A DNA stretch of 64,000 nucleotides from an uncultured Gammaproteobacteria bacterium (GCA_964414795.1 CAYPWV010000001.1:5221-69220); one strand, 5' to 3'. Numbered from the stretch's first letter, positions 1,705 to 62,613 are shown. Program-made: numbers and translations. Notes: generated by a model from the letters alone, not told the origin.

Positions 1705-4575
<2,871 letters not shown>

Positions 4576-4596
4576 GTATAAGCATATAATAATAGG

Positions 4597-4648
4597 ACTC
4601 TCGAAGGTCCTTCGGTCGACAAGAGTCTCCCTCAGGATGACACGGGTG
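4597..4648. repeat. Family B repeat, half copy
   Basis: GAAGGTCCTTCGGTCGAC...CTCCCTCAGGATGACAC matches the right half of element 1559-1674. Confidence 0.6.
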
Positions 4649-4649
4649 C

Positions 4650-11198: not shown

Positions 11199-12278
11199 CT
11201 AAAGTATTTCAAGCGCATCATGCACAATGCGTTCATCGGCGTTTACGGGGAAGATACGACGAATGCGTTCGGCGTGTTCCTGACGATAAGCAGTTGATTG
11301 CACCATTTTGAGGATAGCCTGGAGAAGTACTTGAGGTGTCATTTGGTAGATTACTTCAGCAGCTTCTTGCGCCTGCAGTGCTTTGGCATTTTCTTCTTGT
11401 TGTGATCCCGGAATGGGAATGATAATGGATGGCTTACCAAGCGCTACAAGCTCGGAAATAGTCCCCATGCCCGCACGAGAAACCACCACATCAGCAACCG
11501 CGTACGCATCTGCCATACCTTCATGCAAAAATTCAAGTGCGATATACGGTTTTCCTTGCTCTTGAAATGTCTGTAACGCAGGGAGCATTTTTCCTCGACC
11601 GGTTAAATGAATAACATTCGCGCAGCGTAAAAGATCTTCTGCAATAATAAGCATCGTTTCATTGAGCGAGGATGCTCCTGTTCCGCCACCCATAACAAGC
11701 ACGGTGGGAAGATCGGCACGCAAAACGTAGCGATCGCGCGCACTTACCCGATCGCCCAGCGCCAACATGCTGCGCACCATCGTTCCCACTACGCTTGTTT
11801 TTTTTGCCGCATACGCTGCAGTACTTTCTGGCCACGTGACGCTTATACGTTTTGCAAAAGGCGCCATGATGCGATTTGCAAGCCCCGGGCGCACATCAAG
11901 TTCGTGAATCCATACCGGAATACGCATACACCACGCCACTAAAACAACAGGCAGAGAAACATACGCTCCCGCAGAAAAAACCATGTCGGGACGCATGTTT
12001 TTAAGTATTTTTGCGGCTTGCCACACACTCCACATCATGTGAAAAGGAATGAAGGGATACGTCCACTTGCGATAGCGATCCATACGAGGAGCAGAAAGCG
12101 AAAGAAAAGGAATTTTCGCACCCTCAACAAGCAGTCGTTCGGGACCTTTTGGCGTACCGATCCACGAACACCGCACATCCGGATCGCGCCTGCGCCACTG
12201 CGCCGCAACCGAAAGCAAGGGCGTTACCGGCCCAAGCGTTCCCCCGCCCGTGAAGAGAATGTGATGAGAAGAAGACAT
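11199..12278 (-). CDS. murG: Undecaprenyl-PP-MurNAc-pentapeptide UDP-GlcNAc transferase (GT28)
   Basis: N-terminal GGGTLGP glycine motif, VMGGGTGASSLN C-terminal donor-binding motif. Lies in the murG-ftsW-mraY neighbourhood. Confidence 0.75.
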   Translation of the reverse strand: MSSSHHILFTGGGTLGPVTPLLSVAAQWRRRDPDVRCSWIGTPKGPERLLVEGAKIPFLSLSAPRMDRYRKWTYPFIPFHMMWSVWQAAKILKNMRPDMVFSAGAYVSLPVVLVAWCMRIPVWIHELDVRPGLANRIMAPFAKRISVTWPESTAAYAAKKTSVVGTMVRSMLALGDRVSARDRYVLRADLPTVLVMGGGTGASSLNETMLIIAEDLLRCANVIHLTGRGKMLPALQTFQEQGKPYIALEFLHEGMADAYAVADVVVSRAGMGTISELVALGKPSIIIPIPGSQQEENAKALQAQEAAEVIYQMTPQVLLQAILKMVQSTAYRQEHAERIRRIFPVNADERIVHDALEIL

Positions 12279-12280
12279 AG

Positions 12281-12497
12281 GTGAGAGTGTGAAGTTTGTA
12301 GTTGTTAGTTTGAAGTGAGTGGATGTTGTTTTTTATTGGAATGAAAGACAGCAGACGACAGATGGGGAAAGTAATCGGGGCTGTATTGTATTTAGGTGAG
12401 CAGATCATTTCTCTTATCCGTCGTCTGCTGTCTGTAGTCTGCTATCTCAAAAGAACTACCTTTCACTTCAAACTAACAACTACAAACTTCAAACCTT
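12281..12497. repeat. Family C long palindromic element (~215 bp; arms AGTTTGAAGTGAAAGG.../...CCTTTCACTTCAAACT, core GACAGCAGACGACAGA.../...TCTGTCGTCTGCTGTC)
   Basis: Nested inverted repeats seen directly. It starts 3 nt after the murG start codon (its 5'-UTR side) and overlaps the last codons of pyrG. Confidence 0.75.
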
Positions 12498-14114
12498 TCC
12501 CAAAGCTGCCTTCACAAATCCCACAAACAACGGATGCGGCGACAAAGGACGCGATTGAAACTCTGGATGAAATTGTACTCCTACAAAAAATGGATGATCT
12601 TTCAGCTCGACGATTTCCACTAACGTTCCGTCGGGAGAAATGCCCGAGATCACGAGACCCGCACGTTCTAGCTCGGTTTTATACGCGTTATTAAACTCGT
12701 ACCGATGGCGATGACGTTCTGAAATCTCATCACTTCCATACGCATTTCTCGCAACGCTTCCCTTCTTGAGATTGCACACATACGAACCTAAACGCAGTGT
12801 TCCTCCCAATCCTTTTCCTTTCAGCTTTTCATCTTGTCCGTGCATTAAATGAATAACGGGATGTGCGGTTTTTGGATTTATCTCCTCTGTATGCGCATCC
12901 TTCCATCCCAGCTCCGTACGTGCAAACGCAATCACTGCACACTGCATACCGTAACACAATCCCAAATACGGAATCTTATGCTTTCGCACAAAGGTGATCG
13001 CCGCAATCTTTCCCTCAATTCCTCGCGATCCAAATCCTCCGGGAATAAGGATACCGTCGTACTGCAATAATTCTTCGAGTGCTTTGGGATCTTTTTCGTA
13101 GGCTTCGGCGTTGAGCCATTCGATAACTGGTTTTGCGTTTTGCGCCCACGCCGCGTGCTTAATTGCCTCAAGCACCGAAAGATAGGCGTCGGACAACAGA
13201 AAATCTCCTGTTGAAAAATACTTTCCAATAACGCCGATACGCACCTCCTTTTTTGCAGAAATAATCGTGGTTACCATCTTTTTCCACGCAACAAGATCGG
13301 GAGCTTTTTTGCGTTTTCCAAAGGATTTTAACACCGTGTCCGCAAAACCTTGTTCCTCAAACACCAACGGCACCTCATAAATAGAACGCACATTCGGTGC
13401 GGCGATGATATGATCGGGCGTTACTCCGCAAAACCTACTCAACTTTTCTCTTCGCGGCGCATCAAGCGCAGTTTCCGATCGACACAGCAAAAAATCAGGC
13501 GCAATACCTACGCGATTCATTTCACGCACCGCATGTTGTGTGGGCTTTGTTTTCATTTCGCCAATAGAAGGAGGCACGGGAAGATAACTCACAAGCACAC
13601 TGCGCACCTGCTTCGGCGTATGCAATTGCATCATGCGAATGGCTTCCAAAAAAAGAATATTTTCATATTCTCCCACCGTTCCCCCGACCTCAATCAACGT
13701 AAAATCTGCCTTTGCCTCTTTTGCTGCTCGCTCAATGCGTGCAATCACCTCTTCAGGAACGCGAGGAACCACCTCAACACATTTCCCCCCATATTCACCT
13801 CGCCGTTCACGCTCAATAACCGATAAATAAATACGCCCCGTGGTCATGTAATTCTTTTTGGTGATGTTGATATCTAAAAATCGTTCGTAGTTTCCAATAT
13901 CTTGATCCGTCTCATCCCCATCTACCGTTACAAAAACTTCCCCATGCTCAACCGGGTTCATCGTTCCCGCGTCGACGTTTACGTACGGATCAATTTTGAT
14001 TGCCGTCACCGTATATCCTCGCGCGCGAAGTAAAAGCCCCAGCGATGCTGTTGACGTTCCCTTTCCCACGCCACTCATCACGCCACCGACTACGAAGATG
14101 TATTTGTGTTGCAT
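12489..14114 (-). CDS. pyrG: CTP synthase
   Basis: MQHKYIFVVGGVMSGVGKGTSTASLG N-terminus, GATase domain with GLCYGMQ. Confidence 0.95.
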   Translation of the reverse strand: MQHKYIFVVGGVMSGVGKGTSTASLGLLLRARGYTVTAIKIDPYVNVDAGTMNPVEHGEVFVTVDGDETDQDIGNYERFLDINITKKNYMTTGRIYLSVIERERRGEYGGKCVEVVPRVPEEVIARIERAAKEAKADFTLIEVGGTVGEYENILFLEAIRMMQLHTPKQVRSVLVSYLPVPPSIGEMKTKPTQHAVREMNRVGIAPDFLLCRSETALDAPRREKLSRFCGVTPDHIIAAPNVRSIYEVPLVFEEQGFADTVLKSFGKRKKAPDLVAWKKMVTTIISAKKEVRIGVIGKYFSTGDFLLSDAYLSVLEAIKHAAWAQNAKPVIEWLNAEAYEKDPKALEELLQYDGILIPGGFGSRGIEGKIAAITFVRKHKIPYLGLCYGMQCAVIAFARTELGWKDAHTEEINPKTAHPVIHLMHGQDEKLKGKGLGGTLRLGSYVCNLKKGSVARNAYGSDEISERHRHRYEFNNAYKTELERAGLVISGISPDGTLVEIVELKDHPFFVGVQFHPEFQSRPLSPHPLFVGFVKAALGKV

Positions 14115-17458: not shown

Positions 17459-17603
17459 GTTCATGTGGTTAAAATGGTTAAAGTGTTCTGTTCTCGATGC
17501 TCACAGAAACTATTTAACCATTTTGACCAACTTAACCTCCCTTCAAAAACAATAGGCCGCCCACGGTGGACGGTCCTGAACGAAAACGAAGATCAAGAAA
17601 GAA

Positions 17604-17723
17604 CTACCCGGCTGCATCCCCATGATACCAGTAGTATTGAATATTGCCCCTTGAGTCTCTACAGGGCGTATAATCCTCCGTCGACCACTTCTTTGGCATT
17701 TCCCAGGGCATGACTATATCCAT
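17604..17723 (-). CDS. Small ORF (39 aa, MDIVMPWEMPKKWSTEDYTPCRDSRGNIQYYWYHGDAAG), cassette copy 1
   Basis: ATG is preceded by AACAAGTGGGAG (GGGAG Shine-Dalgarno, 5-6 nt spacing) and a TTGAATATTTTGGTATTTTT promoter-like leader. Followed by a GGCCGCCCACGGTGGACGG hairpin and U-run terminator at 17554-17576. It is below the ORF-track size cutoff. Confidence 0.3.
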   Translation of the reverse strand: MDIVMPWEMPKKWSTEDYTPCRDSRGNIQYYWYHGDAAG

Positions 17724-17825
17724 GAAACACTCCCACTTGTTAGAGGCGATAAAAAAATACCAAAATATTCAATAAAAAGCAATTTAATCATCTTAACCGC
17801 TTAACCCTTCTCCCAAAAAAACAAG

Positions 17826-17849
17826 AGGCCGCCCACGGTGGACGGCCCC
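17826..17849 (-). terminator. Intrinsic terminator of small-ORF cassette copy 2 (hairpin GGCCGCCCACGGTGGACGGCC plus T-run on the minus strand). It is near-identical to the hairpin at 17554-17576.
   Basis: Seen directly. Both copies are followed on the minus strand by TTGTTTTT. Confidence 0.55.
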
Positions 17850-17865
17850 GGAGAACGGAAACTCG

Positions 17866-18069
17866 CTATCCAAGCTCCGGAACAGCAGGTATATAGAGAC
17901 CAATGCGCTGCTCATACCGCAGGCGCTGCCACCATCCCGGATCTTCGTCATCTATCGTTCCCCTATAGGGGTTCTTGGCGACGACTACCATTTCCCCTCC
18001 TTCCGGCGTGGGAACCTCTTCTTCCTTCGCCGTTTCTTTCCCATTCGCCGAGCCATTTGAAGTCGCCAT
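17866..18069 (-). CDS. Small ORF (67 aa from MATSNGSANGKETAKEEEVPTPEGG...WWQRLRYEQRIGLYIPAVPELG), cassette copy 2
   Basis: Same leader as copy 1 (TTGATATTTTGGTATTTTTTTGTTGTCTCTAACAAGTGGGAGCGATC-ATG). Acidic N-terminus, Trp-rich C-terminus. Confidence 0.4.
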   Translation of the reverse strand: MATSNGSANGKETAKEEEVPTPEGGEMVVVAKNPYRGTIDDEDPGWWQRLRYEQRIGLYIPAVPELG

Positions 18070-18128
18070 GATCGCTCCCACTTGTTAGAGACAACAAAAA
18101 AATACCAAAATATCAAGAAAAGAACAAA

Positions 18129-18557
18129 TTATCCCTGCAATGCTTCAGCGATAACGGTAATCGTTGCTTCAAAACCGGTGGAGAATTCAATAACAACCTC
18201 GTGCGTGCTAGGTTCGGTGATGGGAACCATTTTTATAACGTCAAAACCTACGGTGTGACCCATTTCTTTAAGTGCGGCGCGAACATCTTTGTAGGAAATG
18301 GGTTTGGCAAATTTTCCATTTTTCATCTTGCCGGCAACGATAACTTCAAGGCCGTCGAGTTCTCCTGCAAGCTGTTCATCTTCTCGTTCTTCTTTACTTG
18401 TTTTTTGAGGAGCCTCTTCTTCCTTGGGTGCACCACCTGCATGTTCAAATGCCAAATGCTGCGGAAATAAAAAATTTACCGCGTAACCTTCCGGAACTTC
18501 CACGGTCGCGCCCGCCGGACCGATGGAGCTGACATCTTCGGTAAGGGTAATCCACAT
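18129..18557 (-). CDS. rplI: 50S ribosomal protein L9
   Basis: MWITLTEDVSSIGPAGATVEVPEGYAVNFLFPQHLA matches the L9 N-domain. Has an acidic linker insert. TGGTATAAT -10 box upstream. Confidence 0.8.
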   Translation of the reverse strand: MWITLTEDVSSIGPAGATVEVPEGYAVNFLFPQHLAFEHAGGAPKEEEAPQKTSKEEREDEQLAGELDGLEVIVAGKMKNGKFAKPISYKDVRAALKEMGHTVGFDVIKMVPITEPSTHEVVIEFSTGFEATITVIAEALQG

Positions 18558-20264: not shown

Positions 20265-20267
20265 GGG

Positions 20268-20468
20268 AAGGAAAAGTTAGGAAGTTATTAGTTAGAAGCT
20301 TGAAGTGAAAGGTAGTTCCTTCGGGATAACAGACTACAGACAGCAAACGACAGATAAGAAATACCTGATTCTGATCACTTTCCCCATCTGCCGTCTGTAG
20401 TCTGCCGTCCTCACAAACAAAAACACCCTCCACTCACTTCAAACTACCGACTACAAACTTCAAACCCT
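20268..20468. repeat. Family C long palindromic element (full length)
   Basis: GAAGTGAAAGGTAGTTCC...GGAACTACC-like arms and GACAGCAAACGACAGA core. Lies between the divergent ctpA (starts 4 nt after the ctpA ATG) and PEGA genes. Confidence 0.75.
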
Positions 20469-20476
20469 TCCCTCCT

Positions 20477-29681: not shown

Positions 29682-29748
29682 AGGTGTTTATTACGTAATA
29701 ATTTTTTTCTTTTTCATAACATCCCACCCCCTAGCCCCAACACCCTCC

Positions 29749-30360
29749 CTACAATCTCCTCTCCCATAATCCTTTCACAAACCATTTTACCTCACCCATA
29801 ACAGACGTTGTGCGTATAAATGTTATGTCAACCGCATGAATGATGGGCTTTTCGGATATATCTTCGACTCCTGGAAGCGATAAAATGAGTTTATAAGCTC
29901 CGTTTTCTTTTTGCACGTTATCTAAAGAGAATGATGCTGTGCCGGATGTCCATTGATCGCTTTCCTGTTGAGAAGTAAGCGGTGAAAGAGTAAAGGTTTG
30001 TTGTGTGAAATTTTGCATTAAGCCGAGTTCGAATTTTTCTTGATCGTGCAGGTCGTAAGCGACGCTCACGTGCATCTCTTGCCACAGGCCCGCAGGAGGG
30101 ACTATCGACATGTACAACGGTTCGTCGATCGCCGTTATGCATGTGCCGCGATCATCAGCACAAGATGCCGTACGATTATCAGGAAGAGGTCGACCGATGA
30201 GCACTGAGTTCTCCCCTGCTTTCCAAGAAATAGTTTTTTCGCCCGATGGTGCGAGATAGATCCACGTGAGGATAGAAAATAATAAGACGGGAAGCGCTAT
30301 GGGAAGGAGCCAGGGAATAATAAGATGACGATCTTCTCTTTTATTCTCGGGTAATTGCAT
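29749..30360 (-). CDS. Membrane-anchored hypothetical protein (203 aa)
   Basis: Single N-terminal TM, then a soluble domain; overlaps the upstream GT-C gene by 20 nt. Confidence 0.4.
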   Translation of the reverse strand: MQLPENKREDRHLIIPWLLPIALPVLLFSILTWIYLAPSGEKTISWKAGENSVLIGRPLPDNRTASCADDRGTCITAIDEPLYMSIVPPAGLWQEMHVSVAYDLHDQEKFELGLMQNFTQQTFTLSPLTSQQESDQWTSGTASFSLDNVQKENGAYKLILSLPGVEDISEKPIIHAVDITFIRTTSVMGEVKWFVKGLWERRL

Positions 30361-32137
30361 ACAACGTTTCTTCGTTGAGGGTTATGACGGGAGTGAAAAT
30401 GATGTTTTCCTGCGCAAAGACGACGTCGTGGAGATACGCGAGATCTGATTGAGGAAACGTGATGCCGAAATAATAAAGCGGCGATGTAGCAAGAAGTTCG
30501 GGAATTGCGCGATATGTTTTTTCATCTCTCAACGGCACGATGACTGCACGATCGGGCCAGAGATATTTATCTGCACGATCGACAATAATGATTGCATCTT
30601 TGGGCGTAGATGCAAGAATGTTCGCTTGCTTTTCTGCAAACGTTGCAAGAGCTTCGCGCGTACGGAGCACGCCGTCATCACCTGTAAAGACGAGATGAGC
30701 TGAAAACAAAGTCATTCCTACGATACAAACAAGCGGGAGAGCGACGATGATCTTTTTCATCCATATCCTTTGCACGAACGAATGTGAAAAGTTTTTCACA
30801 TGGAGCAATGCATATGCCGTTGCAGGAGCAAGTGCTACAAACACCGGCAACCAATACCGCGTATGAGAATTTCCTAAAGAAATAATAGATGGATCGGGAT
30901 TATCAAAAAATGTCCAACTGCCGTAGAGAATGAGGAGGTAGAGGAGCGACACGGTGAGCAAAAGAAAAGAGACGGCAGAAGGCAGAAGGCAGAAAAGAAC
31001 TGTGAATTGAGAATGTCTGTCGTCTGCTGTCTGCTGTCTGTAAGCTCCAATCCATTTCTTCACAACCCCCCACACCAAACACCCCACACCCCCTACCCCC
31101 ACCACCGTCATCCACGGATACAACGCAAAAACATATCTCCACACGTTTTTCAGCGTTGCACGTTCATGAAATCCAAACGGAAAAAGAATGGCGAATACTT
31201 TTTCATACCACGGAATAATTGCACCTTGCGCAATGGTTCCGCCTACTTCCCATACCGGCTGACTCACCGTGTATCCCGTAATAAATGGCGATCCGTAGAT
31301 TGATGCATGCAAAAATAGCGTGATGCCAATCATGATTCCGCATCCTAAAAAGAGAGCGATGGCATCACAAAAAGACAGTTTTTTAGCGATGGATGCCTGC
31401 CTACCGGACAGGCAGGCCGGATCAAGTCCGACATGACGAGAAGCGAACCCCACGCCACGTCGTTCGCGAACGACGTGGCACCCCCAACACCCCACCCCCA
31501 ACACCCCTCCTATAATCCACACCCACTCAGAAGGACGAATTGCAAGTGCAGACGCAAACATGCCTCCTGCACAAAAAAGAAAAAAATATCGTGTACGCGA
31601 GTTCTCTTTCTTAATCGCCACAAGCACCATCCACACCGCAATCAACAACAGCGCAACAAAAGGCACGTTCGGCATAAGCGAACGGATACTGTAATACCAC
31701 CACGCCGGATGTACCGCGAGCGCAACAACACTCAGCAGCGCAAATTCCTGCGATCCACCCAAACGACGAATAATGCCGTACAGCGCACAAAGACCGAGGA
31801 TACAAAAAATCGGCCCCGTACTCACGGCAAGATACGGCGAAAAAAAGAAAAGTAATCCCGCAATGTACGGCATGCCCAAAAATCCTGCGGGGACGATTGC
31901 GGCACCGACCGTGGTTGTACTTCGCGGATGAAGCATGCCGTGCAAAGAAATGTTTCTCGCCTCATCACTTTTTGCAACGCCTGTTTCAGCGATGCTCTGC
32001 GCAAATGCCCATGTTGCATGTTCATCGGGCGAAACGAAGAGGTCATCGCGGGTTGCGTACGGAATCGCAAGAGAAAAAAGTGATGCACCGTAAGCAAGAG
32101 CAAGTGCTACGCAGGCAATTTTTTTAAGCGTGCTCAT
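30341..32137 (-). CDS. GT-C fold membrane glycosyltransferase (ArnT/PMT-like). It contains in-frame copies of repeat families A and C.
   Basis: Multi-TM N-terminal half with an early DE-containing loop (ATRDDLFVSPDE), large C-terminal soluble domain. Confidence 0.5.
   Translation of the reverse strand: MSTLKKIACVALALAYGASLFSLAIPYATRDDLFVSPDEHATWAFAQSIAETGVAKSDEARNISLHGMLHPRSTTTVGAAIVPAGFLGMPYIAGLLFFFSPYLAVSTGPIFCILGLCALYGIIRRLGGSQEFALLSVVALAVHPAWWYYSIRSLMPNVPFVALLLIAVWMVLVAIKKENSRTRYFFLFCAGGMFASALAIRPSEWVWIIGGVLGVGCWGCHVVRERRGVGFASRHVGLDPACLSGRQASIAKKLSFCDAIALFLGCGIMIGITLFLHASIYGSPFITGYTVSQPVWEVGGTIAQGAIIPWYEKVFAILFPFGFHERATLKNVWRYVFALYPWMTVVGVGGVGCLVWGVVKKWIGAYRQQTADDRHSQFTVLFCLLPSAVSFLLLTVSLLYLLILYGSWTFFDNPDPSIISLGNSHTRYWLPVFVALAPATAYALLHVKNFSHSFVQRIWMKKIIVALPLVCIVGMTLFSAHLVFTGDDGVLRTREALATFAEKQANILASTPKDAIIIVDRADKYLWPDRAVIVPLRDEKTYRAIPELLATSPLYYFGITFPQSDLAYLHDVVFAQENIIFTPVITLNEETLYAITRE
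30955..31040. repeat. Family C core motif (CAGACAGCAGACAGCAGACGACAGACA...) inside the GT-C CDS, in-frame
   Basis: Encodes ...LLPSAVSFLLLTV... with no stop codon. Confidence 0.6.
31386..31484. repeat. Family A palindromic element inserted in-frame in the GT-C CDS
   Basis: GCGATGGATGCCTGCCTACCGGACAGGCAGGCCGGATCAAGTCCGACATGACG plus a CCACGTCGTTCGCGAACGACGTGG palindrome. Translates as ...HVVRERRGVGFASRHVGLDPACLSGRQASIAKK... Confidence 0.7.
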
Positions 32138-32139
32138 AG

Positions 32140-32718
32140 CTAGAGCGAATAGGTGATGAGCGCAACGACCGCAAAAACAAGTGAAAGACCAAGCGTATAT
32201 TCTCCCGTTGCAATAAGCGCCGGTACTTCAAGTACAATACCAAGCAAGAGCAAACCAATGGACGTGCACTGCAACACCATTTTCGTTTTTCCCCACGCGT
32301 TCGCCATCATCACACCTCCGCTATACTTCTGTGATGCCCACCGCAACGACGGGAGAATGTCGAGAAAAATGGCAAAAAAGATCAGTGCCGGATGGTAATA
32401 TTTTAATCCTACAAGAAGTGCAACAGAACCTACGAGAAGCTTGTCGGCAATCGGATCAAAAAAGATTCCCCACGGAGTGATTTTATCTCGCACACGTGCA
32501 AGAGAGCCATCGATGACATCCGTAAACGCAGTTAACACAAAAAGAGGAACCGCAAGCAAATACCATTCGTTCGACAAAAACAACAATACGAAAGGCGTAA
32601 GCAGCATGCGCACAATGGTAACGTGATTTGGCTGAACAAACTCAGGAATAAAGGGTAAAACAACCGCTTTCATGAGCTTGTCATGCGGATATAAACGAGG
32701 TGCTTGTTTTTCAGGCAT
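32140..32718 (-). CDS. pgsA: CDP-alcohol phosphatidyltransferase (PgsA-like)
   Basis: DVIDGSLARVRDKITPWGIFFDPIADKLL matches the CDP-OH_P_transf motif. Confidence 0.7.
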   Translation of the reverse strand: MPEKQAPRLYPHDKLMKAVVLPFIPEFVQPNHVTIVRMLLTPFVLLFLSNEWYLLAVPLFVLTAFTDVIDGSLARVRDKITPWGIFFDPIADKLLVGSVALLVGLKYYHPALIFFAIFLDILPSLRWASQKYSGGVMMANAWGKTKMVLQCTSIGLLLLGIVLEVPALIATGEYTLGLSLVFAVVALITYSL

Positions 32719-32731
32719 ACTCTATGAAAAG

Positions 32732-34795
32732 ATGGTAACAGAATCTATGCGCCGTGTCTTTCTTGCTCTCACGTTTCTTTCCTGCGTTTCTCTGCTGGGA
32801 TCTGCGGTTTATTATACAAGCATCATTACACCAGGAACGCTCGTGCTGGCAACTTTAGGGGCGCTCTTGGTGACAGCGGGAATGGATCACTTCTTCGTCA
32901 TCCCGGATCAAGTCCGGCATGACGAAAAACAAAAAAACAAGATGACCGATACGGTGATCCGCCACTACGTTCTCTTCCTCATCGGTCTCTCCTCCCTCAT
33001 CATCTTTGTCTTCCTCGCGATCACCCATCCCATCACTACTGCTACCCGATCACTCTGGCTCCTCTTTTCTCCGACACACATTGTATTTTTGACGATCGCG
33101 TTTTTTTGTACGATTTTATTATATAAAAAACAAGAGGGCGGATACGTTGATCCGCCCCTACACGATCGACCGCCGCGGTACGCGGCGATTCTTGGCGGTC
33201 TGATTGCATTCGTCACGTCTGCACTTGCGGCGATACTCTTTCCACTAGGATTTGGATTCGATCCTTTTCTTCATCGCGCAACACTCGAGCACATCGCAAC
33301 ATTCGGAACCATCACGCCAAAACCACTGTATTACATCGGTGCGTACGCTCTTGAACTTTGTGGAAATCTTTTGCTTCGTATTCCATTATTTTCTCTTGAT
33401 GTTTTTTTGGCTCCAGTTGGATTTGCGTTTCTCGTTTTTATTGCAGTCCGTAGCAAGCAATTGCATCCCGCAATCCTCGCACTCCTTCCCTTTTCTGCAT
33501 TCGTGAGCACAACGCCGCAAGCCATAGGATTTTTGTGGATTTTTGCCGTGATTCTTGCGTTGAAAAATAATCTTCCGCAGTTGTATCTTTGGCTTTTTGC
33601 ACTTGCCGCACTTGCCGCGCATCCTATTGCCGGCGTTCCGGCGGTGATTTTGGTAACGATCTATTGTCTGTTGAACACGAAACGGAACAAAACGAACCAC
33701 GACAAGGTGGCCGATACGGTGATCGGCCACTACGGATCTATTCTTACCACCATTTTCATTATTCTCGGCATCCTCGCACTTCCGCTCATGTTCTTTGCGC
33801 AGCAGCTCATTACCGGCATGAACGTAGGATTTTCTTGGGTAGCGTTTACGGATTTTTCTCGCATTCCTTCTCTTGGATTTTTCTCGATGCAGGGACATGC
33901 GCTCATGGATACCGTCATGCTGTTTGGTGGAAATGTTTTTTTCATCACGGTGATTCTTGCAATTATTGGATTCATCGTGACTTTGGGTCAACGAAAAATC
34001 AATGCTAGATCTTTCGCACAATCACTCGCACTTTTGCTTGCAAGTATCGTTGCACTGGGTAACTTTGTGATGCTCAGTTTAGGATTTGATTTTCCGTTTC
34101 TCATTTCGTACGAACGTACCGATTTTGCGTTGCGACTGGTAACGATTGCGTGGATATTTCTTTTGCCCCTTGCGTCGGATGGAATGAAAAGGATTATAGG
34201 AATTGTGACGGAATGGAAATTACGCAAATCAGAAACACGATATTTAGAATCACATAGGGACGAATTGAGGACGTACGGGCGGGTTTTAAACCCGCCCCTG
34301 CATACGCGTCTAAAAAATGCCTACGGCATTTTACTCATTCTCATCCTTTTCTCCGCAAATATTTACACCACCTTTCCTCGACACGATGGCTACACGCGAT
34401 CGGCGGCGTTCAATGTTACTGTCGCAGATACCGAAATCGTCCACCGCATTGCCGATGATGCTGCAGGTGAATCCTACGCCGTACTCAGCAATCAAACGCT
34501 TGCTTCGATGGCTATCCAAGAATTTGGCTTTTTCCAGTACTTTCATAACAACATCTTCGCCTACCCCATCCCTACCAGCGGCCCACTCTACACGCTCTTT
34601 CTTACCATGATTACAACTCCCAATCTTGAAACTATTGCACAAGCTCACGATCTCACCGGCGCATCTCGCATCTACTTCGTGGTGCACAACTACTGGTGGG
34701 AAGCCGATCTTCGCATTGCCGAAACAAAAAAAATCGCAGACGCATATTTCACGTCTGCTGATGGAACGATTACCGTATTTGTCTTTTCCAGATAA
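32732..34795 (+). CDS. Large polytopic membrane protein of unknown function (about 690 aa). It has an internal protein-level duplication and in-frame copies of three different repeat families.
   Basis: More than 12 predicted TM helices. Start inferred at MVTESMRRVF. Repeats at 32896-32923 (A), 33136-33157 (F) and 34277-34297 (E) are all translated without stops. Confidence 0.5.
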   Translation: MVTESMRRVFLALTFLSCVSLLGSAVYYTSIITPGTLVLATLGALLVTAGMDHFFVIPDQVRHDEKQKNKMTDTVIRHYVLFLIGLSSLIIFVFLAITHPITTATRSLWLLFSPTHIVFLTIAFFCTILLYKKQEGGYVDPPLHDRPPRYAAILGGLIAFVTSALAAILFPLGFGFDPFLHRATLEHIATFGTITPKPLYYIGAYALELCGNLLLRIPLFSLDVFLAPVGFAFLVFIAVRSKQLHPAILALLPFSAFVSTTPQAIGFLWIFAVILALKNNLPQLYLWLFALAALAAHPIAGVPAVILVTIYCLLNTKRNKTNHDKVADTVIGHYGSILTTIFIILGILALPLMFFAQQLITGMNVGFSWVAFTDFSRIPSLGFFSMQGHALMDTVMLFGGNVFFITVILAIIGFIVTLGQRKINARSFAQSLALLLASIVALGNFVMLSLGFDFPFLISYERTDFALRLVTIAWIFLLPLASDGMKRIIGIVTEWKLRKSETRYLESHRDELRTYGRVLNPPLHTRLKNAYGILLILILFSANIYTTFPRHDGYTRSAAFNVTVADTEIVHRIADDAAGESYAVLSNQTLASMAIQEFGFFQYFHNNIFAYPIPTSGPLYTLFLTMITTPNLETIAQAHDLTGASRIYFVVHNYWWEADLRIAETKKIADAYFTSADGTITVFVFSR
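32896..32923. repeat. Family A minimal palindrome (CGTCATCCCGGATCAAGTCCGGCATGACG) in-frame in CDS
   Basis: Encodes FFVIPDQVRHDEK. Confidence 0.6.
33136..33157. repeat. Family F hairpin repeat GGGCGGATACGTTGATCCGCCC (in-frame in CDS; second copy at 63841-63862)
   Basis: Seen directly; encodes EGGYVDPPL. Confidence 0.6.
34277..34297. repeat. Family E hairpin repeat GGGCGGGTTTTAAACCCGCCC (in-frame in CDS; other copies at 42514-42536 and 47696-47716)
   Basis: Perfect palindrome seen directly; encodes GRVLNPPL. Confidence 0.65.
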
Positions 34796-35298
34796 AAAAA
34801 GTGGGCCCGGAGAAACTCTGCTAGAGAGTCCCTTCCGAGCCCGAGAACGAGTTGTAGGCGGGTCGCTTTGGATCCCCTGCCTACTTCACAGTTGAGTCCT
34901 CGGGACTTTCGTCCCGAGGTTGGGGGCGTGTCTCGCCCCCGGGAAACGTCAGTTTGAGAAGGACGAGCATAAGGCCCATCCTTAAAGCGCTTTTCCTCAC
35001 CGAAGTGAGGAGCGTACCCTGGGTTTCCTCAAAACCCCCCAGGCCTAAGCGCATTACCGCAGGAGCGCATCTGCGTCCTCCCGCAGTTCCAGGAAAAATC
35101 TCCCAACTTTTTTGTCGCCGAGGCTAACCTCGGCGACTTTAGTCCCACTTATCTCGTACAGAGGACCATCTCGGGTCCTCTACGTATTCCCAGGCAAAAG
35201 TCCTTTTTTGGGGTGGCCAGCCCCAGTAACTTTCTTTGGCCTCTTACTCTCCTTTGCAGGAGTTTCGATGGCTTCCCCGAAGGGTTTCACCACCGTGT
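34794..35298 (-). ncRNA. Unclassified, highly structured non-coding RNA of about 500 nt with its own near-consensus promoter and intrinsic terminator
   Basis: Minus-strand TTGACA, 17-nt spacer, TATTAT at 35333-35305. No ORF of 60 aa or more on the transcribed strand. Dense GC-rich hairpins with UUCG (x2), GAAA and GCAA tetraloops on the minus strand. Terminal long stem-loop followed by ACUUUUUUU at 34794-34860. Confidence 0.45.
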
Positions 35299-35304
35299 AA
35301 GAAC

Positions 35305-35333
35305 ATAATAGCATATTTTTTCATTTTTGTCAA
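35305..35333 (-). promoter_or_regulatory. Near-consensus sigma-70 promoter (TTGACA, 17-nt spacer, TATTAT) driving the ncRNA
   Basis: Seen directly on the minus strand. An upstream hairpin terminator at 35375-35400 (AAAAGAGCCUCACCGCUCUUUUUU) insulates it from the GT4 operon. Confidence 0.55.
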
Positions 35334-35426
35334 AAGCGTGCCGGAAAAGAGGGCTAGAAAATAGCTTATATAAAACAAAAAAGAGCGGTGAGGCTCTTTT
35401 GGGAAATTTGAGGAATTTGTTGCATT

Positions 35427-35534
35427 CGTCATGCCGGACTTGATCCGGTCTGCCTGTCCGGTAGGCAGGCATCCATCGTTTTTAACCCCATCTTTCTTGA
35501 TGCGATGGATCCCGGGTCGGTGCCCGGGATGACG
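35427..35534. repeat. Family A palindromic element, full-length intergenic copy (CGTCATGCCGGACTTGATCCGG...CCGGGTCGGTGCCCGGGATGACG)
   Basis: Terminal inverted repeats and internal palindromes seen directly. Confidence 0.75.
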
Positions 35535-35540
35535 AAAAGC

Positions 35541-36764
35541 CTATAAAATCACTTTTTCTTTACGCTTTTCGATAACCGCTACAAGAGTTTCGGTGAGCTT
35601 GGTGGCGTAGGTTTCGAGGGCGTAATCTGAAATGCTTGCGCGGATTTCTTCGCGGCGCTCGGCGAAATCTTCTTTGCGGCGATCAACTTCTTGCACAACA
35701 CGCTTTAAATCTTCTTCATTTCCTGGAGTAAACAACATGCCCGTTTCACCTTCGCACAAAAGCTCACCCACCCCCCCAATCTGTGAAGCAATAACTGGTA
35801 CACCTGCCATTAATGACTCGTAGATCACCGTAGGAGAGTTTTCGTAGCAAAGTGAAGGAACGATAAGCGCATCAACAACACTAAACACATTTGCAAGCTC
35901 TTCGGGAGGCGTGTAGCCCAAAAACACGATGCGCTTATCTTGCGCGGCCATGGTTTCAACCTCGCTCTTCATAGGCCCTGCTCCTGCAACATACAACCGC
36001 ACATCGCCGGTAAAGCGCTTGAGCGCATCAAGAAGGAACGCAAGACCTTTATGCTTTCCGAGCTGTCCTACAAACAACAACTTTAACGGTCCGCCCGAAC
36101 GTCCTTTTCTTTTATTCTCTGCATAGTTTGGCGCAGGATTCTGCATCACCATGCGCTCACTTTTTGGAAAAAACTTGTGTGCGTCGTACACGTCTTTTAA
36201 ATAACGCGAAGGAAAAATAACCAAATCGGGATTATCAAACTTTTGTTTGCACACCATGCGATATGCGCCGTACGCAATCTTTTGCAAAATATTTTGCTTT
36301 TCCTGTCCAAACATCAACAGACCCGAAGGAACGATAAGCTGCAAATCGTGCGCCACATGCACGTGAGGAATGTGCAGATCGGCAATAACGCTTGGGATAT
36401 TGAGACCGATGCCTTTGAGATTATGCGTGATGACCACGTCGGGCTGTTCGTCGCGCAAAATGGCGCGTATATGCTCGGCACCGTGCCAAGAAAGGGCATC
36501 GCGTACATGCCAAAAAAAACGAGTAAGCCAGGGATATTTGTAATCGTCAAGCGTAAAGTAAAAGTTACGCGGGAAAAATCGGTAAATGCGCTCGGTGCTT
36601 GACCGGTCGAGCACGACTTTTGTACCCAAACGCTTGGGGTGCCCGGTAATCACAAACACATCGTGCCCCATAGCCATAAGCTGGCCAACGGTGCGCACAA
36701 TAACGTTTTCTGCTCCTCCGCGCGAAAAAGGAGGATAGAGATTGGTGATAATCCCAATTTTCAT
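35541..36764 (-). CDS. Glycosyltransferase family 4 (GT-B, group 1)
   Basis: MKIGIITNLYPPFSRGGAE N-terminus, C-terminal E-x7-E region (GVGELLCEGETGMLF). Confidence 0.8.
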   Translation of the reverse strand: MKIGIITNLYPPFSRGGAENVIVRTVGQLMAMGHDVFVITGHPKRLGTKVVLDRSSTERIYRFFPRNFYFTLDDYKYPWLTRFFWHVRDALSWHGAEHIRAILRDEQPDVVITHNLKGIGLNIPSVIADLHIPHVHVAHDLQLIVPSGLLMFGQEKQNILQKIAYGAYRMVCKQKFDNPDLVIFPSRYLKDVYDAHKFFPKSERMVMQNPAPNYAENKRKGRSGGPLKLLFVGQLGKHKGLAFLLDALKRFTGDVRLYVAGAGPMKSEVETMAAQDKRIVFLGYTPPEELANVFSVVDALIVPSLCYENSPTVIYESLMAGVPVIASQIGGVGELLCEGETGMLFTPGNEEDLKRVVQEVDRRKEDFAERREEIRASISDYALETYATKLTETLVAVIEKRKEKVIL

Positions 36765-37909: not shown

Positions 37910-38090
37910 AGGTAGGGAAAGTTTGAAGTTTGGAGTTGGTAGTTTGAAGTGAAAGGATGTTCTGTTTTAGCGTGTCATCCTGAGGGAGTGCTACGTCGAC
38001 CGAAGGAACTTCCAGACGACAGACTGCAGAAGGCAGATGGGGAAAATGAAAGAACTGAGAGAACTGAGAGTGAGGATGGCATTAGTTAGT
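37910..38090. repeat. Family C element (left arm and core) with a nested family B half-copy (37968-38020)
   Basis: AGTTTGAAGTTTGGAGTTGGTAGTTTGAAGTGAAAGGATG arm is identical to the copy at 52305. The right arm is missing. It starts 3 nt after the GT4 start codon. Confidence 0.7.
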
Positions 38091-42454: not shown

Positions 42455-42513
42455 ACAAACAAAATACCGACGCTTTCGATTTGCAACTATGTACGTACAG
42501 GCGGTTGCTTGTA

Positions 42514-42536
42514 CGGGCGGGTTTTAAACCCACCCC
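42514..42536. repeat. Family E hairpin (GGGCGGGTTTTAAACCCACCC) immediately after the stop of the TPR gene
   Basis: Seen directly. It acts as a likely terminator hairpin for a minus-strand gene. Confidence 0.6.
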
Positions 42537-43300
42537 TACTCTGCGGTATGCAACTCCGGCGCCTTCCCATCATCTTCAGTAACATTCATCGCTTTACATG
42601 CGGCTATTGCAGCTTTTGCCTCATCAATCACTTGCTGACGAATTTCATCGGTTGTCGCAAGATCTTCTGCCACATCAAAATGATCGCGCGACCGATCACA
42701 ATCTCCTGCATCGGCATACCAATTTCCGAGTCCAATCATGTTAAACATCTTTCGCCCAAGTATTTCTACCGATTGCTCGTACAATTCTTTTACTTTATCA
42801 CGTTCATCGGGAAATTGCTGGGTGAGAATGCGAATAGCATCACGATATGTTGTTTCAATTGGCGTAAGTTCTACCGCGCGCAAATAGGCATTTTTTGCAT
42901 TTTCATAGTCTTGCATTGTAAACAATGTGTAGCCATAAGAACTCCACGTTGCACTGTTGAGCGAATTATACGTAAGAGATGCTTCAAGCGATTCACGCGC
43001 AAGAACTAAGTCACCCAAAATAAGTGCATCGCTTGCAATGGCATTATATAGATCGGTATTGATTTCTTGTCCCGCATCTTTTGATGCTTGGATGGAAGCC
43101 TGAGCTGTTGCAATACGCTGTTGTGCAAGTGTACGAACACCTTCGTCTGACTGCACATCTATGTGCGTTATCAATCCTTTGTACGGATCTTGATTCGTCC
43201 AAGAGTAGACGCCAATTCCGAGTGCAATAAGAACTGCAAGAACTGCTGCGGAAAAAATGTACTGTTCGCGAGAAAATTTCATATAAAGAAATGGTAGCAA
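42536..43300 (-). CDS. TPR-like repeat protein with N-terminal TM anchor
   Basis: Helical repeat content (tetratricopeptide-like AYLRAVEL..., YNSLNSATWSSYGY); weak. Confidence 0.4.
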   Translation of the reverse strand: MLPFLYMKFSREQYIFSAAVLAVLIALGIGVYSWTNQDPYKGLITHIDVQSDEGVRTLAQQRIATAQASIQASKDAGQEINTDLYNAIASDALILGDLVLARESLEASLTYNSLNSATWSSYGYTLFTMQDYENAKNAYLRAVELTPIETTYRDAIRILTQQFPDERDKVKELYEQSVEILGRKMFNMIGLGNWYADAGDCDRSRDHFDVAEDLATTDEIRQQVIDEAKAAIAACKAMNVTEDDGKAPELHTAE

Positions 43301-47523: not shown

Positions 47524-47695
47524 TAAAGAATTGGCTCTTTTACCCCAGAGCCGGGGGTGAGTGTGAAGAAGGACAAAGCCGGCCCTGCGGCCTCGACTTT
47601 TACTGGATTTGTCAGGGATGCGAACGCCATCCCTTCAGAGGCCATCACGTGGGGTGATGATGTCTAAAGGAAGGGTGTTGTAGAGGCGGGGGTAG

Positions 47696-47716
47696 GGGCG
47701 GGTTTTAAACCCGCCC
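47696..47716. repeat. Family E hairpin (GGGGCGGGTTTTAAACCCGCCC) after the stop of the anti-sigma-like gene and inside the 5' leader of the giant gene
   Basis: Seen directly. Confidence 0.6.
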
Positions 47717-47738
47717 GTACAAGCCCCCCGCCCTTGCG

Positions 47739-51063: not shown

Positions 51064-52302
51064 CTATTGTATCGCCTCCGTATAGATGCCAAAAAGACCC
51101 TCCCAATGTTTATCCGGATCCCCTACCGCTATCCCTCGTACAGCGGCCTGGAGACGCATCTCTTGCACAGCGGAGGCGTTTTTATCGCCTTCAGAAGCAA
51201 GGAGAAAACGGATGTGTTTCTCCCACACATCAAGCGCATCCGGATGCTCCACAAACCCTGAAATGCCATGCTCCACAATCTCCGATAATCCCCCTTCGCT
51301 GCTCACGATTACGGGAGTTCCCAGCGACAATGACTCAAGCCCAACAAGACCAAAAGGCTCAGGCCACCGCGACGGCACAATAACGCCTGCCGCATGCTTG
51401 ATCATCTCCCAAAGTGCTTGAGGCGTTTGCACAGAAAGTACAGAAAGATTTTTTCTCTTGGCTGCAAGTTTGCGAAGCGGTTCTTCCTGAGCGCCATGAC
51501 CTACACATACAAACGTAACGTCCGGCATACGCACCACCAGCTCCATAAGTACATCAACGCCTTTATACGTTTCAAAACGACTAGCGAAAATAATTTGGGG
51601 GATACGATGTGTTCGTACGGGCGGAACATTTTCCGCCCCTACAGATGCTCCCGATGGCAACGGCAACACACGAATATTCATAGCGCGATACCCCCCATCA
51701 GTGAGTGCTTTTTTTACGGCATGCGATGCGGTGAGAATGTGCGTTACACCTTGCGTCCACATACCACACCTTTTTTGCACACGGACGACCGCATCCACAA
51801 CGCCCGTTGCAAACGCCGAATTTTTTATGCATTTCGTTCTCACCACGTCGCGCCACGACGCGTGCGCAGACAACGGACCCACGCCATCAAACAATCCGTA
51901 ATTTGCGCTGATATATCCGTAATCGTGCGCCGTGAGCACCACGGGAACACCCGCATCTTTTGCAGCACTCAGCACTGACGGCGAGAGATGTGTGTATAGA
52001 TTATGCGCGTGAATGACATCGGGCTTGAACGCAGCAATTATTGCGCGTGTTTTTTTATACGCTTCGTAACTCCAGAGTGTTCTTCCTAATTGTCGCAACG
52101 CCTGTATCCCCTTCCCCACGCCTGAGGTTTCAAGATTGCTTACAAAAAAATGCTCCCACGGTGAAGTATTATTTTCCGGATGATGCATGGCGAGCACGGC
52201 CGTTGCGTGGCCATGTGCATCCGCCAGGCGCATCACATCGTGCATATATCTCCCCACGCCATCGCGTTCGTGGTTGTATTTGTTAATGTGGAGAATGCGC
52301 AT
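51064..52302 (-). CDS. Glycosyltransferase family 4
   Basis: MRILHINKY...GVGRY N-domain, EPFGLVGLESLSLGTPVI C-domain motif. Confidence 0.8.
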   Translation of the reverse strand: MRILHINKYNHERDGVGRYMHDVMRLADAHGHATAVLAMHHPENNTSPWEHFFVSNLETSGVGKGIQALRQLGRTLWSYEAYKKTRAIIAAFKPDVIHAHNLYTHLSPSVLSAAKDAGVPVVLTAHDYGYISANYGLFDGVGPLSAHASWRDVVRTKCIKNSAFATGVVDAVVRVQKRCGMWTQGVTHILTASHAVKKALTDGGYRAMNIRVLPLPSGASVGAENVPPVRTHRIPQIIFASRFETYKGVDVLMELVVRMPDVTFVCVGHGAQEEPLRKLAAKRKNLSVLSVQTPQALWEMIKHAAGVIVPSRWPEPFGLVGLESLSLGTPVIVSSEGGLSEIVEHGISGFVEHPDALDVWEKHIRFLLASEGDKNASAVQEMRLQAAVRGIAVGDPDKHWEGLFGIYTEAIQ

Positions 52303-52304
52303 AG

Positions 52305-52508
52305 GGGAGAGTTTGAAGTTTGGAGTTGGTAGTTTGAAGTGAAAGGATGTTTTTTTTGTTGGATGAAGATGAAAGACAGCAGACTACAGACGACAGATTA
52401 GTGAAGTGATCAGAATCAGATATCTTTCATCTGTCGTCTGCTGTCTGTATTCTGTTATTTCAAAGGAACTACCTTTCACTTCAAACTCTTAACTTATAAC
52501 TTCACACC
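52305..52508. repeat. Family C long palindromic element (full length)
   Basis: Arms AGTTTGAAGTTTGGAGTTGGTAGTTTGAAGTGAAAGGATG / GGAACTACCTTTCACTTCAAACTC. Core GACAGCAGACTACAGACGACAGA / TCTGTCGTCTGCTGTCTG. It starts 3 nt after the GT4 start codon and overlaps the Wzy-like gene stop. Confidence 0.75.
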
Positions 52509-57856: not shown

Positions 57857-57943
57857 ATCGTTCGTATTGAGGTGCTGTCAAGGGATAGTCGCCTTTTTCT
57901 TTATGCGATGGATCCCGGGTCAAGCCCGGGATGACAGGACTTA

Positions 57944-62473: not shown

Positions 62474-62559
62474 ATCACAAGATCCTGAGCTCGGCGAAGG
62501 ATCTAGCGAACGAATAAGAGATATCTGACAAATGGGTTCTCTGGACCCTTCCTATCGTC

Positions 62560-62600: not shown

Positions 62601-62613
62601 AACCTCTCTCCAT

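Follow-up and report, generated by a model that had tools for sequence, protein, structure and literature searches.

How do palindromic DNA repeats come to lie, in frame, inside two intact membrane protein genes? The question is raised by a 64,000-nucleotide (nt) stretch of DNA from an uncultured bacterium (GCA_964414795.1, CAYPWV010000001.1, positions 5221 to 69220; hereafter, the window), in which palindromes of four repeat families (A, C, E, and F) are read through in two genes that lie close together. The answer that we favor, with a probability of about 0.75, is that the palindromes are selfish DNA resembling repetitive extragenic palindromes (REPs) and Rickettsia palindromic elements (RPEs), which survive only where frame and function allow. 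The two host genes, identified from their open reading frames (ORFs), AlphaFold models, and Foldseek searches and, for the first, from the Pfam family PMT_2, are as follows.

30341 to 32137, minus strand: intact gene for a 598-amino-acid (aa) glycosyltransferase of the GT-C fold (PMT_2/ArnT-like).
32732 to 34795, plus strand: intact gene for a 687-aa polytopic membrane protein, also of the GT-C fold.

A preliminary description of the locus had proposed a GT-C glycosyltransferase at the first position. This was borne out by the Pfam match (PMT_2), the AlphaFold model (predicted local distance difference test [pLDDT], 91.4), and the top Foldseek matches (ArnT, STT3, and PglB), and the protein keeps every residue that is invariant in an alignment of its homologs. 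The second protein, previously given as 690 aa, has 687 aa when counted from the ATG at 32732, the start that its homologs use too. A Pfam search with it gave no match. Its AlphaFold model (pLDDT, 91.1) has 13 transmembrane (TM) helices and a C-terminal domain, and the best Foldseek matches to that model were AftA, STT3, AglB, ArnT, and EmbC; therefore, what had been described simply as an adjacent polytopic protein has the GT-C fold as well. A CDP-alcohol phosphatidyltransferase gene sits between the two genes, both of which are part of a glycosyltransferase cluster whose order is kept in related genomes. Both proteins are 100% identical to proteins of metagenome-assembled genomes (MAGs) at NCBI, and their named homologs are from Patescibacteria or Uhrbacteria; on these sequence matches, we read the host lineage as Patescibacteria (Candidate Phyla Radiation [CPR]), Uhrbacteria-like. 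GC skew is negative across the whole window, and about 80% of the ORFs are on the minus strand; the 687-aa gene is among the few on the plus strand and is presumably transcribed head-on relative to replication.

All five elements listed in the preliminary description lie inside ORFs where it placed them, and each recurs elsewhere in the window; its translation of the genic family A element also agrees with the computed one. It missed two F copies (copies 1 and 3 below), a 26-nt palindrome at 31454 to 31479, and two coding G/T-rich tracts. The 598-aa gene contains the following features.

30955 to 31040: core of family C, an imperfect palindrome of CAGACGA-type 7-mers found by repeat search, encoding YRQQTADDRHSQFTVLFCLLPSAVS.
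31056 to 31115, minus strand: a second G/T-rich tract, 15 nt from the C core, encoding VVGVGGVGCLVWGVV (preceding TM helix end).
31388 to 31438 (within 31386 to 31484), minus strand: family A element with the architecture of a CGTC-tagged REP, CGTC-ATGTCGGA-CTTGA-TCCGG...GCAT-CCA, encoding ...SRHVGLDPACLSGRQASI...
31454 to 31479: 26-nt perfect palindrome GCCACGTCGTTCGCGAACGACGTGGC beside family A, encoding CHVVRERRG; unique in the window.
31473 to 31526, minus strand: G/T-rich tract (GGGGTGTTGGGGGTGGGG...) abutting the family A/palindrome insert and encoding the TM helix end GGVLGVGCWGC.

The following features lie in the 687-aa gene.

32896 to 32924: minimal CGTC palindrome of family A, CGTC-ATCCCGGA-TCAAG-TCCGGCAT-GACG, encoding VIPDQVRHD in the TM2-TM3 loop (pLDDT, 63).
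32932 to 32968, minus strand: F copy 1, GTAG-TGGCGGATCACCGTATCGGTC-ATCTTGTTTTTT on that strand, encoding KMTDTVIRHY; found by repeat search.
33125 to 33161 (hairpin at 33136 to 33161), minus strand: F copy 2, GTAG-GGGCGGATCAACGTATCCGCCC-TCTTGTTTTTT on that strand, encoding KKQEGGYVDPPLH (pLDDT, 66).
33697 to 33733, minus strand: F copy 3, encoding HDKVADTVIGHY (pLDDT, 60).
34273 to 34301 (hairpin at 34277 to 34297), plus strand: E copy, GTAC-GGGCGGG-TTTTAAA-CCCGCCC-CTGC, with the form of a degenerate GTAG...CTAC REP, encoding TYGRVLNPPL (pLDDT, 58).
Both ORFs: predicted peptides across insert junctions, GVGFASR, HVGLDPACLSGR, QEGGYVDPPLHDRPPR, VLNPPLHTR, and MTDTVIR.

Codon alignments were made with two syntenic loci, L001 (GCA_965006295.1) and L002 (a Logan contig), and loop lengths were compared with those of 76 homologs of the 598-aa protein and 91 homologs of the 687-aa protein. 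The closest homologs are 57 to 62% identical to the window proteins, and the extra residues of the latter coincide with the repeats. The segments corresponding to family A and the 26-nt palindrome, to F copies 2 and 3, and most of that corresponding to the E region are absent in both L001 and L002; the palindrome region is a 12-aa insertion relative to L002, and F copies 2 and 3 are insertions of 13 and 16 aa, respectively, relative to both loci. At the position of the G/T-rich tract at 31473 to 31526, orthologs have ordinary codons. The C core behaves differently, with a related insert in L001 and none in L002, and the G/T-rich tract at 31056 to 31115 goes along with it: L001 has both tract and insert, and L002 has neither. 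The preliminary description had reasoned that its finding would fall if orthologs encoded the same peptides with nonrepeat DNA; this is not what we found for A, F, and E, and at the C site, L001 carries a related repeat. Among the 14 window ORFs with an ortholog in L001 or L002, indels of at least 6 aa in the window sequence occur in these two genes alone (one poorly conserved pair, with about 35% identity, has two 8-aa insertions, in the ortholog rather than in the window). The two genes are also the most diverged of the well-conserved pairs (57 to 62% versus 66 to 88% identity).

The loops that carry the inserts are long for their families. In the GT-C glycosyltransferase of 598 aa, the TM7-TM8 loop has 59 aa (median, 28 aa; the longest of 76) and the TM9-TM10 loop has 56 aa (median, 37 aa; second of 76). 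In the 687-aa protein, the TM12-TM13 loop has 67 aa (median, 38 aa) and is the longest among the 91 homologs, with the E copy falling in its 29-aa excess; the TM8-TM9, TM4-TM5, and TM2-TM3 loops have 48, 29, and 44 aa (medians, 35, 17, and 38 aa) and rank 3rd, 4th, and 11th of 91, respectively. Loops bearing invariant residues vary in length across homologs with a standard deviation of no more than 0.5 aa. The structure models point the same way. The four blocks of lowest pLDDT in the 687-aa model (residues 61 to 70, 131 to 150, 321 to 330, and 511 to 520; pLDDT, 58 to 66) are the minimal A/F copy 1, F copy 2, F copy 3, and E inserts, and each sits between two TM helices. In the 598-aa model, the A region (residues 221 to 250) has pLDDT values of 47 to 62, and the sole segment below 50 (residues 229 to 239) is within the A insert; the C insert is built as an extension of two helices (pLDDT, 76 to 86). 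Alignments, loop lengths, and models thus support the claim of the preliminary description that the inserts are frame-preserving, lineage-specific additions in loops: orthologs without them exist, the loops are the longest or nearly so, and AlphaFold places the inserts in loops as low-confidence segments between helices.

In GT-C enzymes, the conserved catalytic loops and the C-terminal domain are standardly assumed to be extracytoplasmic. We took them so and combined this with helix maps and the lysine and arginine (K/R) content of loops. A plain count of AlphaFold helices gave inconsistent membrane sides, which were mended only by treating residues 283 to 315 of the 687-aa protein as one kinked helix and residues 88 to 105 of the 598-aa protein as a non-spanning helix in the first external loop. 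We infer an N-in/C-out topology with 13 helices for the 687-aa protein and with 11 helices plus the non-spanning one for the 598-aa protein. In these models, every insert is predicted to lie in a K/R-rich cytoplasmic loop or cytoplasmic helix end, on the side of the membrane opposite the conserved catalytic loops.

Such repeats might be misjoined by assemblers, or the genes might be decaying. Logan contigs from two other sequencing runs match the window at 31401 to 35522 and at 31437 to 35211 with 100% identity, and therefore the 687-aa gene with its five elements is not an assembly artifact; the three assemblies are identical over 31437 to 35211 (3.8 to 4.1 kb), with no variation at the locus. 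The ends of both contigs lie within family A copies (at 31401 and 35522). Family A is therefore repeated in the genome, and the breaks show that it confuses assemblers, which is the point in favor of an artifact. The preliminary description was to stand or fall with reads at the palindromes: from 31401 to 35522, the contigs of the two other runs agree with the assembly, and the join across 31386 to 31400 is spanned by the MAG assembly and backed by conserved synteny and the reading frame. An artifact or a pair of pseudogenes is scarcely credible given full-length ORFs, retained invariant residues, confident GT-C models, and a gene order that agrees with the orthologous loci.

The same loops have been hit repeatedly. 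In their own DNA, orthologs P0084, P0086, and P0090 carry perfect GTAG-type palindromes in matching loops. The sequence GAGACGCCCCGGCGGGGCGTCTC-TAC, encoding QETPRRGVST, occupies the E site in orthologs, and a variant occurs at the A/F copy 1 site. F-like hairpins at the F copy 2 site of orthologs, e.g., GGGTCGACACGTTGGTCGACC-TCTAC, have the ACGTTG loop of family F with different stems (GGGTCGAC...GTCGACC-TCTAC). A palindrome with a CGTTCGCGAACG center identical to that of the 26-nt palindrome was found in a loop of P0086. In L001 and L002, the E-site copy has decayed and its pairing is lost. At one and the same position, P0002 (L001) and apparently P0003 have a C-like insert (CAGACGACAGAC...) that their nearest relatives, P0004 to P0008, lack; in the tree, the window protein is sister to the clade of P0002 to P0008. 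Two gains of the C-like insert are the more parsimonious account, because a single gain would need three or more losses.

Copies of the same families also lie outside the two genes.

35427 to 35534: intergenic reference copy of family A, two CGTC REPs tail to tail (35427 to 35478, with a nested hairpin, and 35503 to 35534), directly 3' of a GT4 gene.
42511 to 42539 (hairpin from 42515), plus strand: intergenic E copy; pattern search.
47692 to 47720 (hairpin from 47696), plus strand: intergenic E copy (GTAG...GTAC); pattern search.
52300 to 52515: complete intergenic family C element, palindromic, about 215 nt; self-repeat search.
57906 to 57936, minus strand: intergenic CGTC-type monomer, TGTC-ATCCCGGG-CTTGA-CCCGGGAT-CCA; pattern search.
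63841 to 63866, minus strand: extragenic F copy with the same 20-nt core as F copy 2; pattern search.

The 64-kb window thus holds three E copies and four F copies. The genic A region and the intergenic copy (35426 to 35511) show 80% complementarity over 86 nt, the repeated part being 31388 to 31438, and the 20-nt core of the F copy 2 hairpin (33137 to 33156) recurs identically at 63842. The genic C core matches the inner part of intergenic elements of about 200 to 230 nt at 12.3, 20.3, 38.0, and 52.4 kb (further copies at 12276 to 12502 and 20267 to 20473; partial copies at 37910 to 38051 and 62559 to 62611). In dinucleotide-preserving shuffles, 0 matches to the E, F, and A patterns are expected, versus 3 to 4 sites observed for each (for E, six strand-wise matches at 3 sites). 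BLAST of the window against itself yielded 27 repeat-bearing intervals, and those deep within long ORFs are confined to the 598-aa and 687-aa genes. The repeat at 4599 to 4644 was considered as a further in-frame genic insert and rejected, as it is upstream of a plausible internal start (Met46) in the ORF at 3782 to 4720. The view that copies outside the genes are terminator-like holds for F, on the antisense strand only (on the minus strand: GTAG, stem-loop, and then CTTGTTTTTT), and not for E, which is without a T-run.

In complete family C elements, the terminal inverted repeats are G/T rich and about 50 nt long, and the inner palindromes consist of CAGACGA 7-mers. One family C copy, between genes for a PEGA-domain protein and a CtpB-like protein, is syntenic in L001 (19783 to 19897) and L002 (18648 to 18748); it is therefore old and may have a regulatory role instead of being recently mobile. 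A further family of repeats (GTGTCATCCTGAGGGAG...CGACCGAAGGA, TGTC tagged) occurs at 1634 to 1675, 4599 to 4644, and 37972 to 38013, with the last copy nested in a family C element. The window has five G-run-rich, potentially quadruplex-forming tracts (GGGGTGTGGGG-like; 430 to 486, 1521 to 1563, 29715 to 29754, 31056 to 31115, and 31473 to 31526), two of which code for GT-C TM helix ends beside palindromic inserts and are gone where the ortholog lacks the inserts.

To which class do the elements belong? CGTC REPs have a CGTC or TGTC tag, an 8- to 9-bp stem starting with AT, a 4- to 5-nt loop, and a short unpaired tail whose consensus is CCA (Di Nocera et al. 2013, PMC3733652). Family A fits these features, with the tag, an AT-initiated 8-bp stem, a 5-nt loop, and the CCA tail (CGTC-ATGCCGGA-CTTGA-TCCGG..GCAT-CCA at 35427 and, on the minus strand, CGTC-ATCCCGGG-CACCGA-CCCGGGAT-CCA at 35534); the minimal copy at 32896 terminates in GACG, not CCA. 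Two family A copies, including the genic one (at 31396 to 31416), have a second hairpin nested in the 3' arm. The pair at 35427 to 35534 is inverted and folds as a single long hairpin; it is an inverted dimer, though joined tail to tail, and the commonest CGTC REP dimers are head to head (PMC3733652). GTAG-tagged REPs are imperfect palindromes of 20 to 40 nt that form a stem-loop with GTAG (or GYAG/GTRG) at one foot, are dispersed mostly outside genes near 3' ends, and number tens to hundreds per genome, where a cognate REP-associated tyrosine transposase is expected. Family E has a 7- to 9-bp stem and a 3- to 7-nt loop, and family F has an 8- to 9-bp stem and a 6-nt loop (fold z scores, −2.9 to −3.9); over all of the inserts, those of families A, F, and E have fold z scores between −2.9 and −4.3, and the C core has one of −1.6. 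The tag of the window E copies is GTAC, GTAC, and GTAG, and a GTAG or CTAC end is seen in two of the three; for F, the minus-strand tag is GTAG in three of four window copies and GTAA in one. By sequence architecture, A is a CGTC-tagged REP, and E and F are GTAG-tagged REPs. A, E, and F are palindromes in their entirety, and long terminal inverted repeats are confined to family C. No target site duplication was recognized at the elements. The genic C copy is a core only.

Family E reaches far beyond the window. In a scan with its 21-nt core, limited to one genome per species, at least 120 loci in many phyla were matched, the matches listed including Dehalococcoidia, Desulfobacterota, Nitrospirota, Omnitrophota, Patescibacteria, Alpha- and Gammaproteobacteria, Bacteroidales, Planctomycetota, and others; the source genome of the window was not among the matches listed. 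Over 130 occurrences at these loci, the four bases 5' of the core are GTAG (81 to 87% per position), those 3' of it are CTAC (73 to 85%), and the sequence beyond is random; E is therefore a discrete, GTAG-tagged palindrome of 29 nt. This 29-nt palindrome (GTAGGGGCGGGTTTTAAACCCGCCCCTAC, translated as VGAGFKPAPT) is unchanged in at least 120 loci of distant phyla, with several copies per genome in some MAGs. A literature search with the E sequence string matched only unrelated eukaryotic papers.

An origin of the palindromes in place, by template switching during replication or hairpin-primed duplication, would account for the 26-nt palindrome that is unique in the window and for loops that are prone to indels throughout the family. 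We nevertheless consider it very improbable, in view of the near-identical copies of A, C, E, and F elsewhere in the window and of E copies in many genomes with the same GTAG/CTAC ends; even the 26-nt palindrome shares its center with one in the genome of an ortholog.

E copies are mostly extragenic. In the window, the two extragenic ones are within 25 nt of stop codons; in other genomes, 8 of 131 copies (6%) are flanked on each side by 100 or more stop-free codons, versus 47% of random positions at the same loci. Family F departs from this pattern within the window, where three of its four copies are genic. Read-through of E also occurs elsewhere (a 656-aa Omnitrophota protein contains ...SVGAGFKPAPT..., and a 422-aa Patescibacteria ORF has two copies). 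In other genomes, coding sequence is strongly depleted of E, which speaks for insertion and subsequent purifying selection and not for recruitment.

The preliminary description had suggested, as one of two readings, that the repeats act as diversifiers of surface or membrane proteins, the other being that they are read as RNA structures within mRNAs. Inserted peptides that modify these envelope glycosyltransferases and are favored by selection would be in keeping with the striking density of the inserts (at least nine modules in 3.9 kb), with the repeated hits on the same loops in orthologs, and with the lysine, arginine, glycine, and proline (K, R, G, and P) encoded by A-runs and GC-rich stems, a composition suited to cytoplasmic loops by the positive-inside rule. 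Yet the location predicted from the helix map and the positions of the catalytic loops is cytoplasmic rather than at the surface, the three assemblies show no sequence variation, the inserted segments are modeled as disordered, and the peptides vary by frame and lineage. With the same element strongly depleted from coding DNA in general, adaptive loop modules seem distinctly unlikely, and a role as surface protein diversifiers is not supported. Targeted diversification, e.g., by a diversity-generating retroelement, was rejected; the assemblies do not differ, and the elements are palindromes with extragenic copies, not a template/variable pair, although no search aimed at a reverse transcriptase was made.

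The orientation of the elements is uniform: all three E copies and all four F copies in the window have a single orientation, and the CTAC end is 3' on the coding strand in all of the ortholog palindromes. This bias would fit either strand-specific insertion into single-stranded DNA or the loss of sense copies, whose hairpin and U-run would terminate transcription inside the gene. Alternatively, the hairpins might be kept for a role in the transcript or the DNA (translation pausing after a TM helix, mRNA stability, or a host factor), with the peptide as a by-product. Stable stem-loops are formed by all of the inserts (with the weakest score for the C core), all of which directly follow or precede TM helices, and perfect palindromes are kept in the same loops by different lineages; the single orientation also favors this role, and REPs act as RNA or DNA elements in other bacteria (PMC3733652). 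What makes this role unlikely is that most orthologs have no palindrome at most of the sites in proteins that are otherwise conserved, that the old copies in L001 and L002 have decayed without keeping their pairing, that unrelated families occupy different loops, and that the seven other polytopic membrane genes of the window have none.

The recurrent hits also suggest, more speculatively, that these loops are REP traps: different REP families would independently colonize the same loops across Patescibacteria, with existing coding hairpins as homing targets for single-strand-specific insertion, often by nesting and with the GTAG foot antisense. We hold this to be doubtful. If true, the loops would be self-reinforcing and would continuously supply K/R/G/P-rich sequence, the membrane enzymes of CPR bacteria would regularly owe changes in protein length to REPs, and the occurrence of an identical E 29-mer in different phyla would reflect a horizontally spreading pair of hairpin and transposase.

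Selfish REP/RPE-like DNA remains the reading that we prefer, and it would work as follows. The E and F GTAG stem-loops, the A CGTC stem-loop with its nested hairpin, and the C core of a larger palindrome with G/T-rich tracts would be non-autonomous elements, probably mobilized by an HUH/Y1 transposase of the RAYT type (REP-associated tyrosine transposase) acting on single-stranded hairpins. Copies would land widely, and selection would purge those that break genes and leave survivors that are mostly extragenic. A genic copy would survive if its net length were a multiple of three, its frame were free of stops, and its 8 to 30 residues fell in a dispensable segment; short cytoplasmic connecting loops and cytoplasmic helix ends of two fast-evolving GT-C glycosyltransferases would be such permissive sites. 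At least nine modules would have gathered there over time, some nested in or adjoining earlier ones. They would be translated as disordered, G/P/R/K-rich loop extensions and then decay to ordinary loop sequence, and we infer that they are neutral or slightly deleterious.

Several observations weigh against this reading. The window has seven further polytopic membrane ORFs that are free of repeats, so that tolerance of membrane loops alone does not explain the concentration of inserts; with the eight internal genic copies placed by gene length, that concentration has a P value of about 4e-8 (post hoc). No pair of empty and filled sites is available at high nucleotide identity, the closest orthologs being 57 to 62% identical, and transposition, with its target site choice and timing, is therefore putative. 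The A site has gained about 31 aa net, which falls short of the element and its neighbors, so some replacement or deletion must be assumed. A phmmer search of the window and the 120 E loci with an IS200 TnpA probe found no Y1 transposase; this search was crude, had low power, and covered less than 10% of the genome. Finally, an identical E sequence in many phyla fits poorly with the picture of lineage-specific, vertically inherited REPINs (REP doublets forming hairpins).

The phenomenon itself is known, in RPEs since 2000 and in intragenic REPs since 2013; the window offers a dense new example and no new mechanism. In-frame RPEs are present in many genes (Ogata et al. 2000, Science 290:347, as related in PMC10969869). 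To the extent that this secondary account describes them, the elements of the window are like RPEs in comprising several dispersed palindromic families, in frame in unrelated genes of a bacterium with a small genome, with fold-compatible peptides and without their own transposase gene; here, alignments, AlphaFold models, and loop lengths show that functional genes contain them in frame and at fold-compatible positions. On the same account, they differ in size (mostly 25- to 50-bp REP-like hairpins, versus about 100 to 150 bp for classical RPEs), in host (Patescibacteria, not Rickettsia), and in distribution (clustered in two adjacent genes, with RPEs spread over many), and RPE peptides are translated, whereas the inserts here are known from DNA. 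RPE-4 and RPE-6 have been equated with CGTC REPs (PMC3733652). By architecture only, family A would belong to the RPE-4/RPE-6 superfamily; by analogy, the elements appear to work like RPEs, and membership is not claimed.

In the survey of Di Nocera et al. 2013 (PMC3733652), intragenic REPs, at times several per ORF, were overrepresented in genes for replication and repair. The window elements share with the REPs of that survey the GTAG tag with 7- to 9-bp stems (E and F) and the CGTC tag, AT-initiated 8-bp stem, 5-nt loop, and CCA tail (A), as well as dimers, nesting, and a mostly extragenic location just 3' of genes, with a minority in ORFs, even twice in one, encoding about 10 to 30 aa. The survey predates CPR genomes, and unlike its cases, the genic copies here are in membrane glycosyltransferases. 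REPINs have a conserved GTAG foot, often occur as inverted pairs, and are thought to be mobilized in trans by a single-copy HUH/Y1 transposase, RAYT (Bertels and Rainey 2011, PMC3116915; Nunvar et al. 2010, PMC2817692). Hairpin repeats with a GTAG foot and inverted pairs are found here too; REPINs, however, are described as lineage specific and vertically inherited, and many phyla share an identical E 29-mer. In-frame fusions are also known for MITEs (miniature transposable elements with inverted repeats), i.e., Coxiella QMITE, intragenic ERIC, and pneumococcal BOX (reviewed in PMC10969869). These are likewise small, non-autonomous repeats with open frames that yield translational fusions upon landing in genes. 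MITEs are defined by terminal inverted repeats and target site duplications, however, and of the window families, only C has long terminal inverted repeats, with no duplication recognized. In the searchable literature, we found no description of REP-type elements in CPR bacteria.

Other structured sequences were noted in the window. Between the 687-aa gene and the intergenic family A pair, a noncoding stretch of about 500 nt (34797 to 35333, minus strand) contains about 15 near-perfect hairpins (minimum free energy, −234.5 kcal/mol; z = −9.1) and is preceded by a near-consensus promoter, TTGACA-17-TATTAT with a TG extension (35333 to 35305, minus strand). In L002, the equivalent spacer is 46 nt long; in L001, it is about 800 nt long, and the alignment there is confined to the promoter/terminator part. 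The stretch could be a structured RNA or a pileup of hairpin elements; Rfam searches of the whole window at gathering thresholds found transfer-messenger RNA (tmRNA) only, and at an E value of ≤1, nothing meaningful was found in 34700 to 35600. The tmRNA gene (61003 to 61416, minus strand; RF00023, 86 bits) was not reported by ARAGORN, nor did this program detect any tRNA in the window. At 17530 to 18131, a duplication of about 345 nt contains a 57-nt direct repeat (at 17730 and 18075) and, on the minus strand, terminator-like hairpins at 17545 and 17817 (GGCCGTCCACCGTGGGCGGCC and then a T-run).

Selfish palindromic DNA that comes to be translated is a known but seldom studied phenomenon, which the locus would extend to the CPR. 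Repeats of this kind carry a practical warning, in that they fragment assemblies and inflate apparent protein divergence in CPR genomes. With at least nine modules in two genes and with fresh, nested, and decayed copies in the loops of sister lineages, the locus is a dense natural experiment, of use for the study of loop sequence gain, of insertion-tolerant positions in GT-C enzymes, and of hot spots for hairpin-targeted insertion. Given how dense and nested the inserts are, and how often orthologous loops have been used, we regard the locus as well suited for study, not as surprising.

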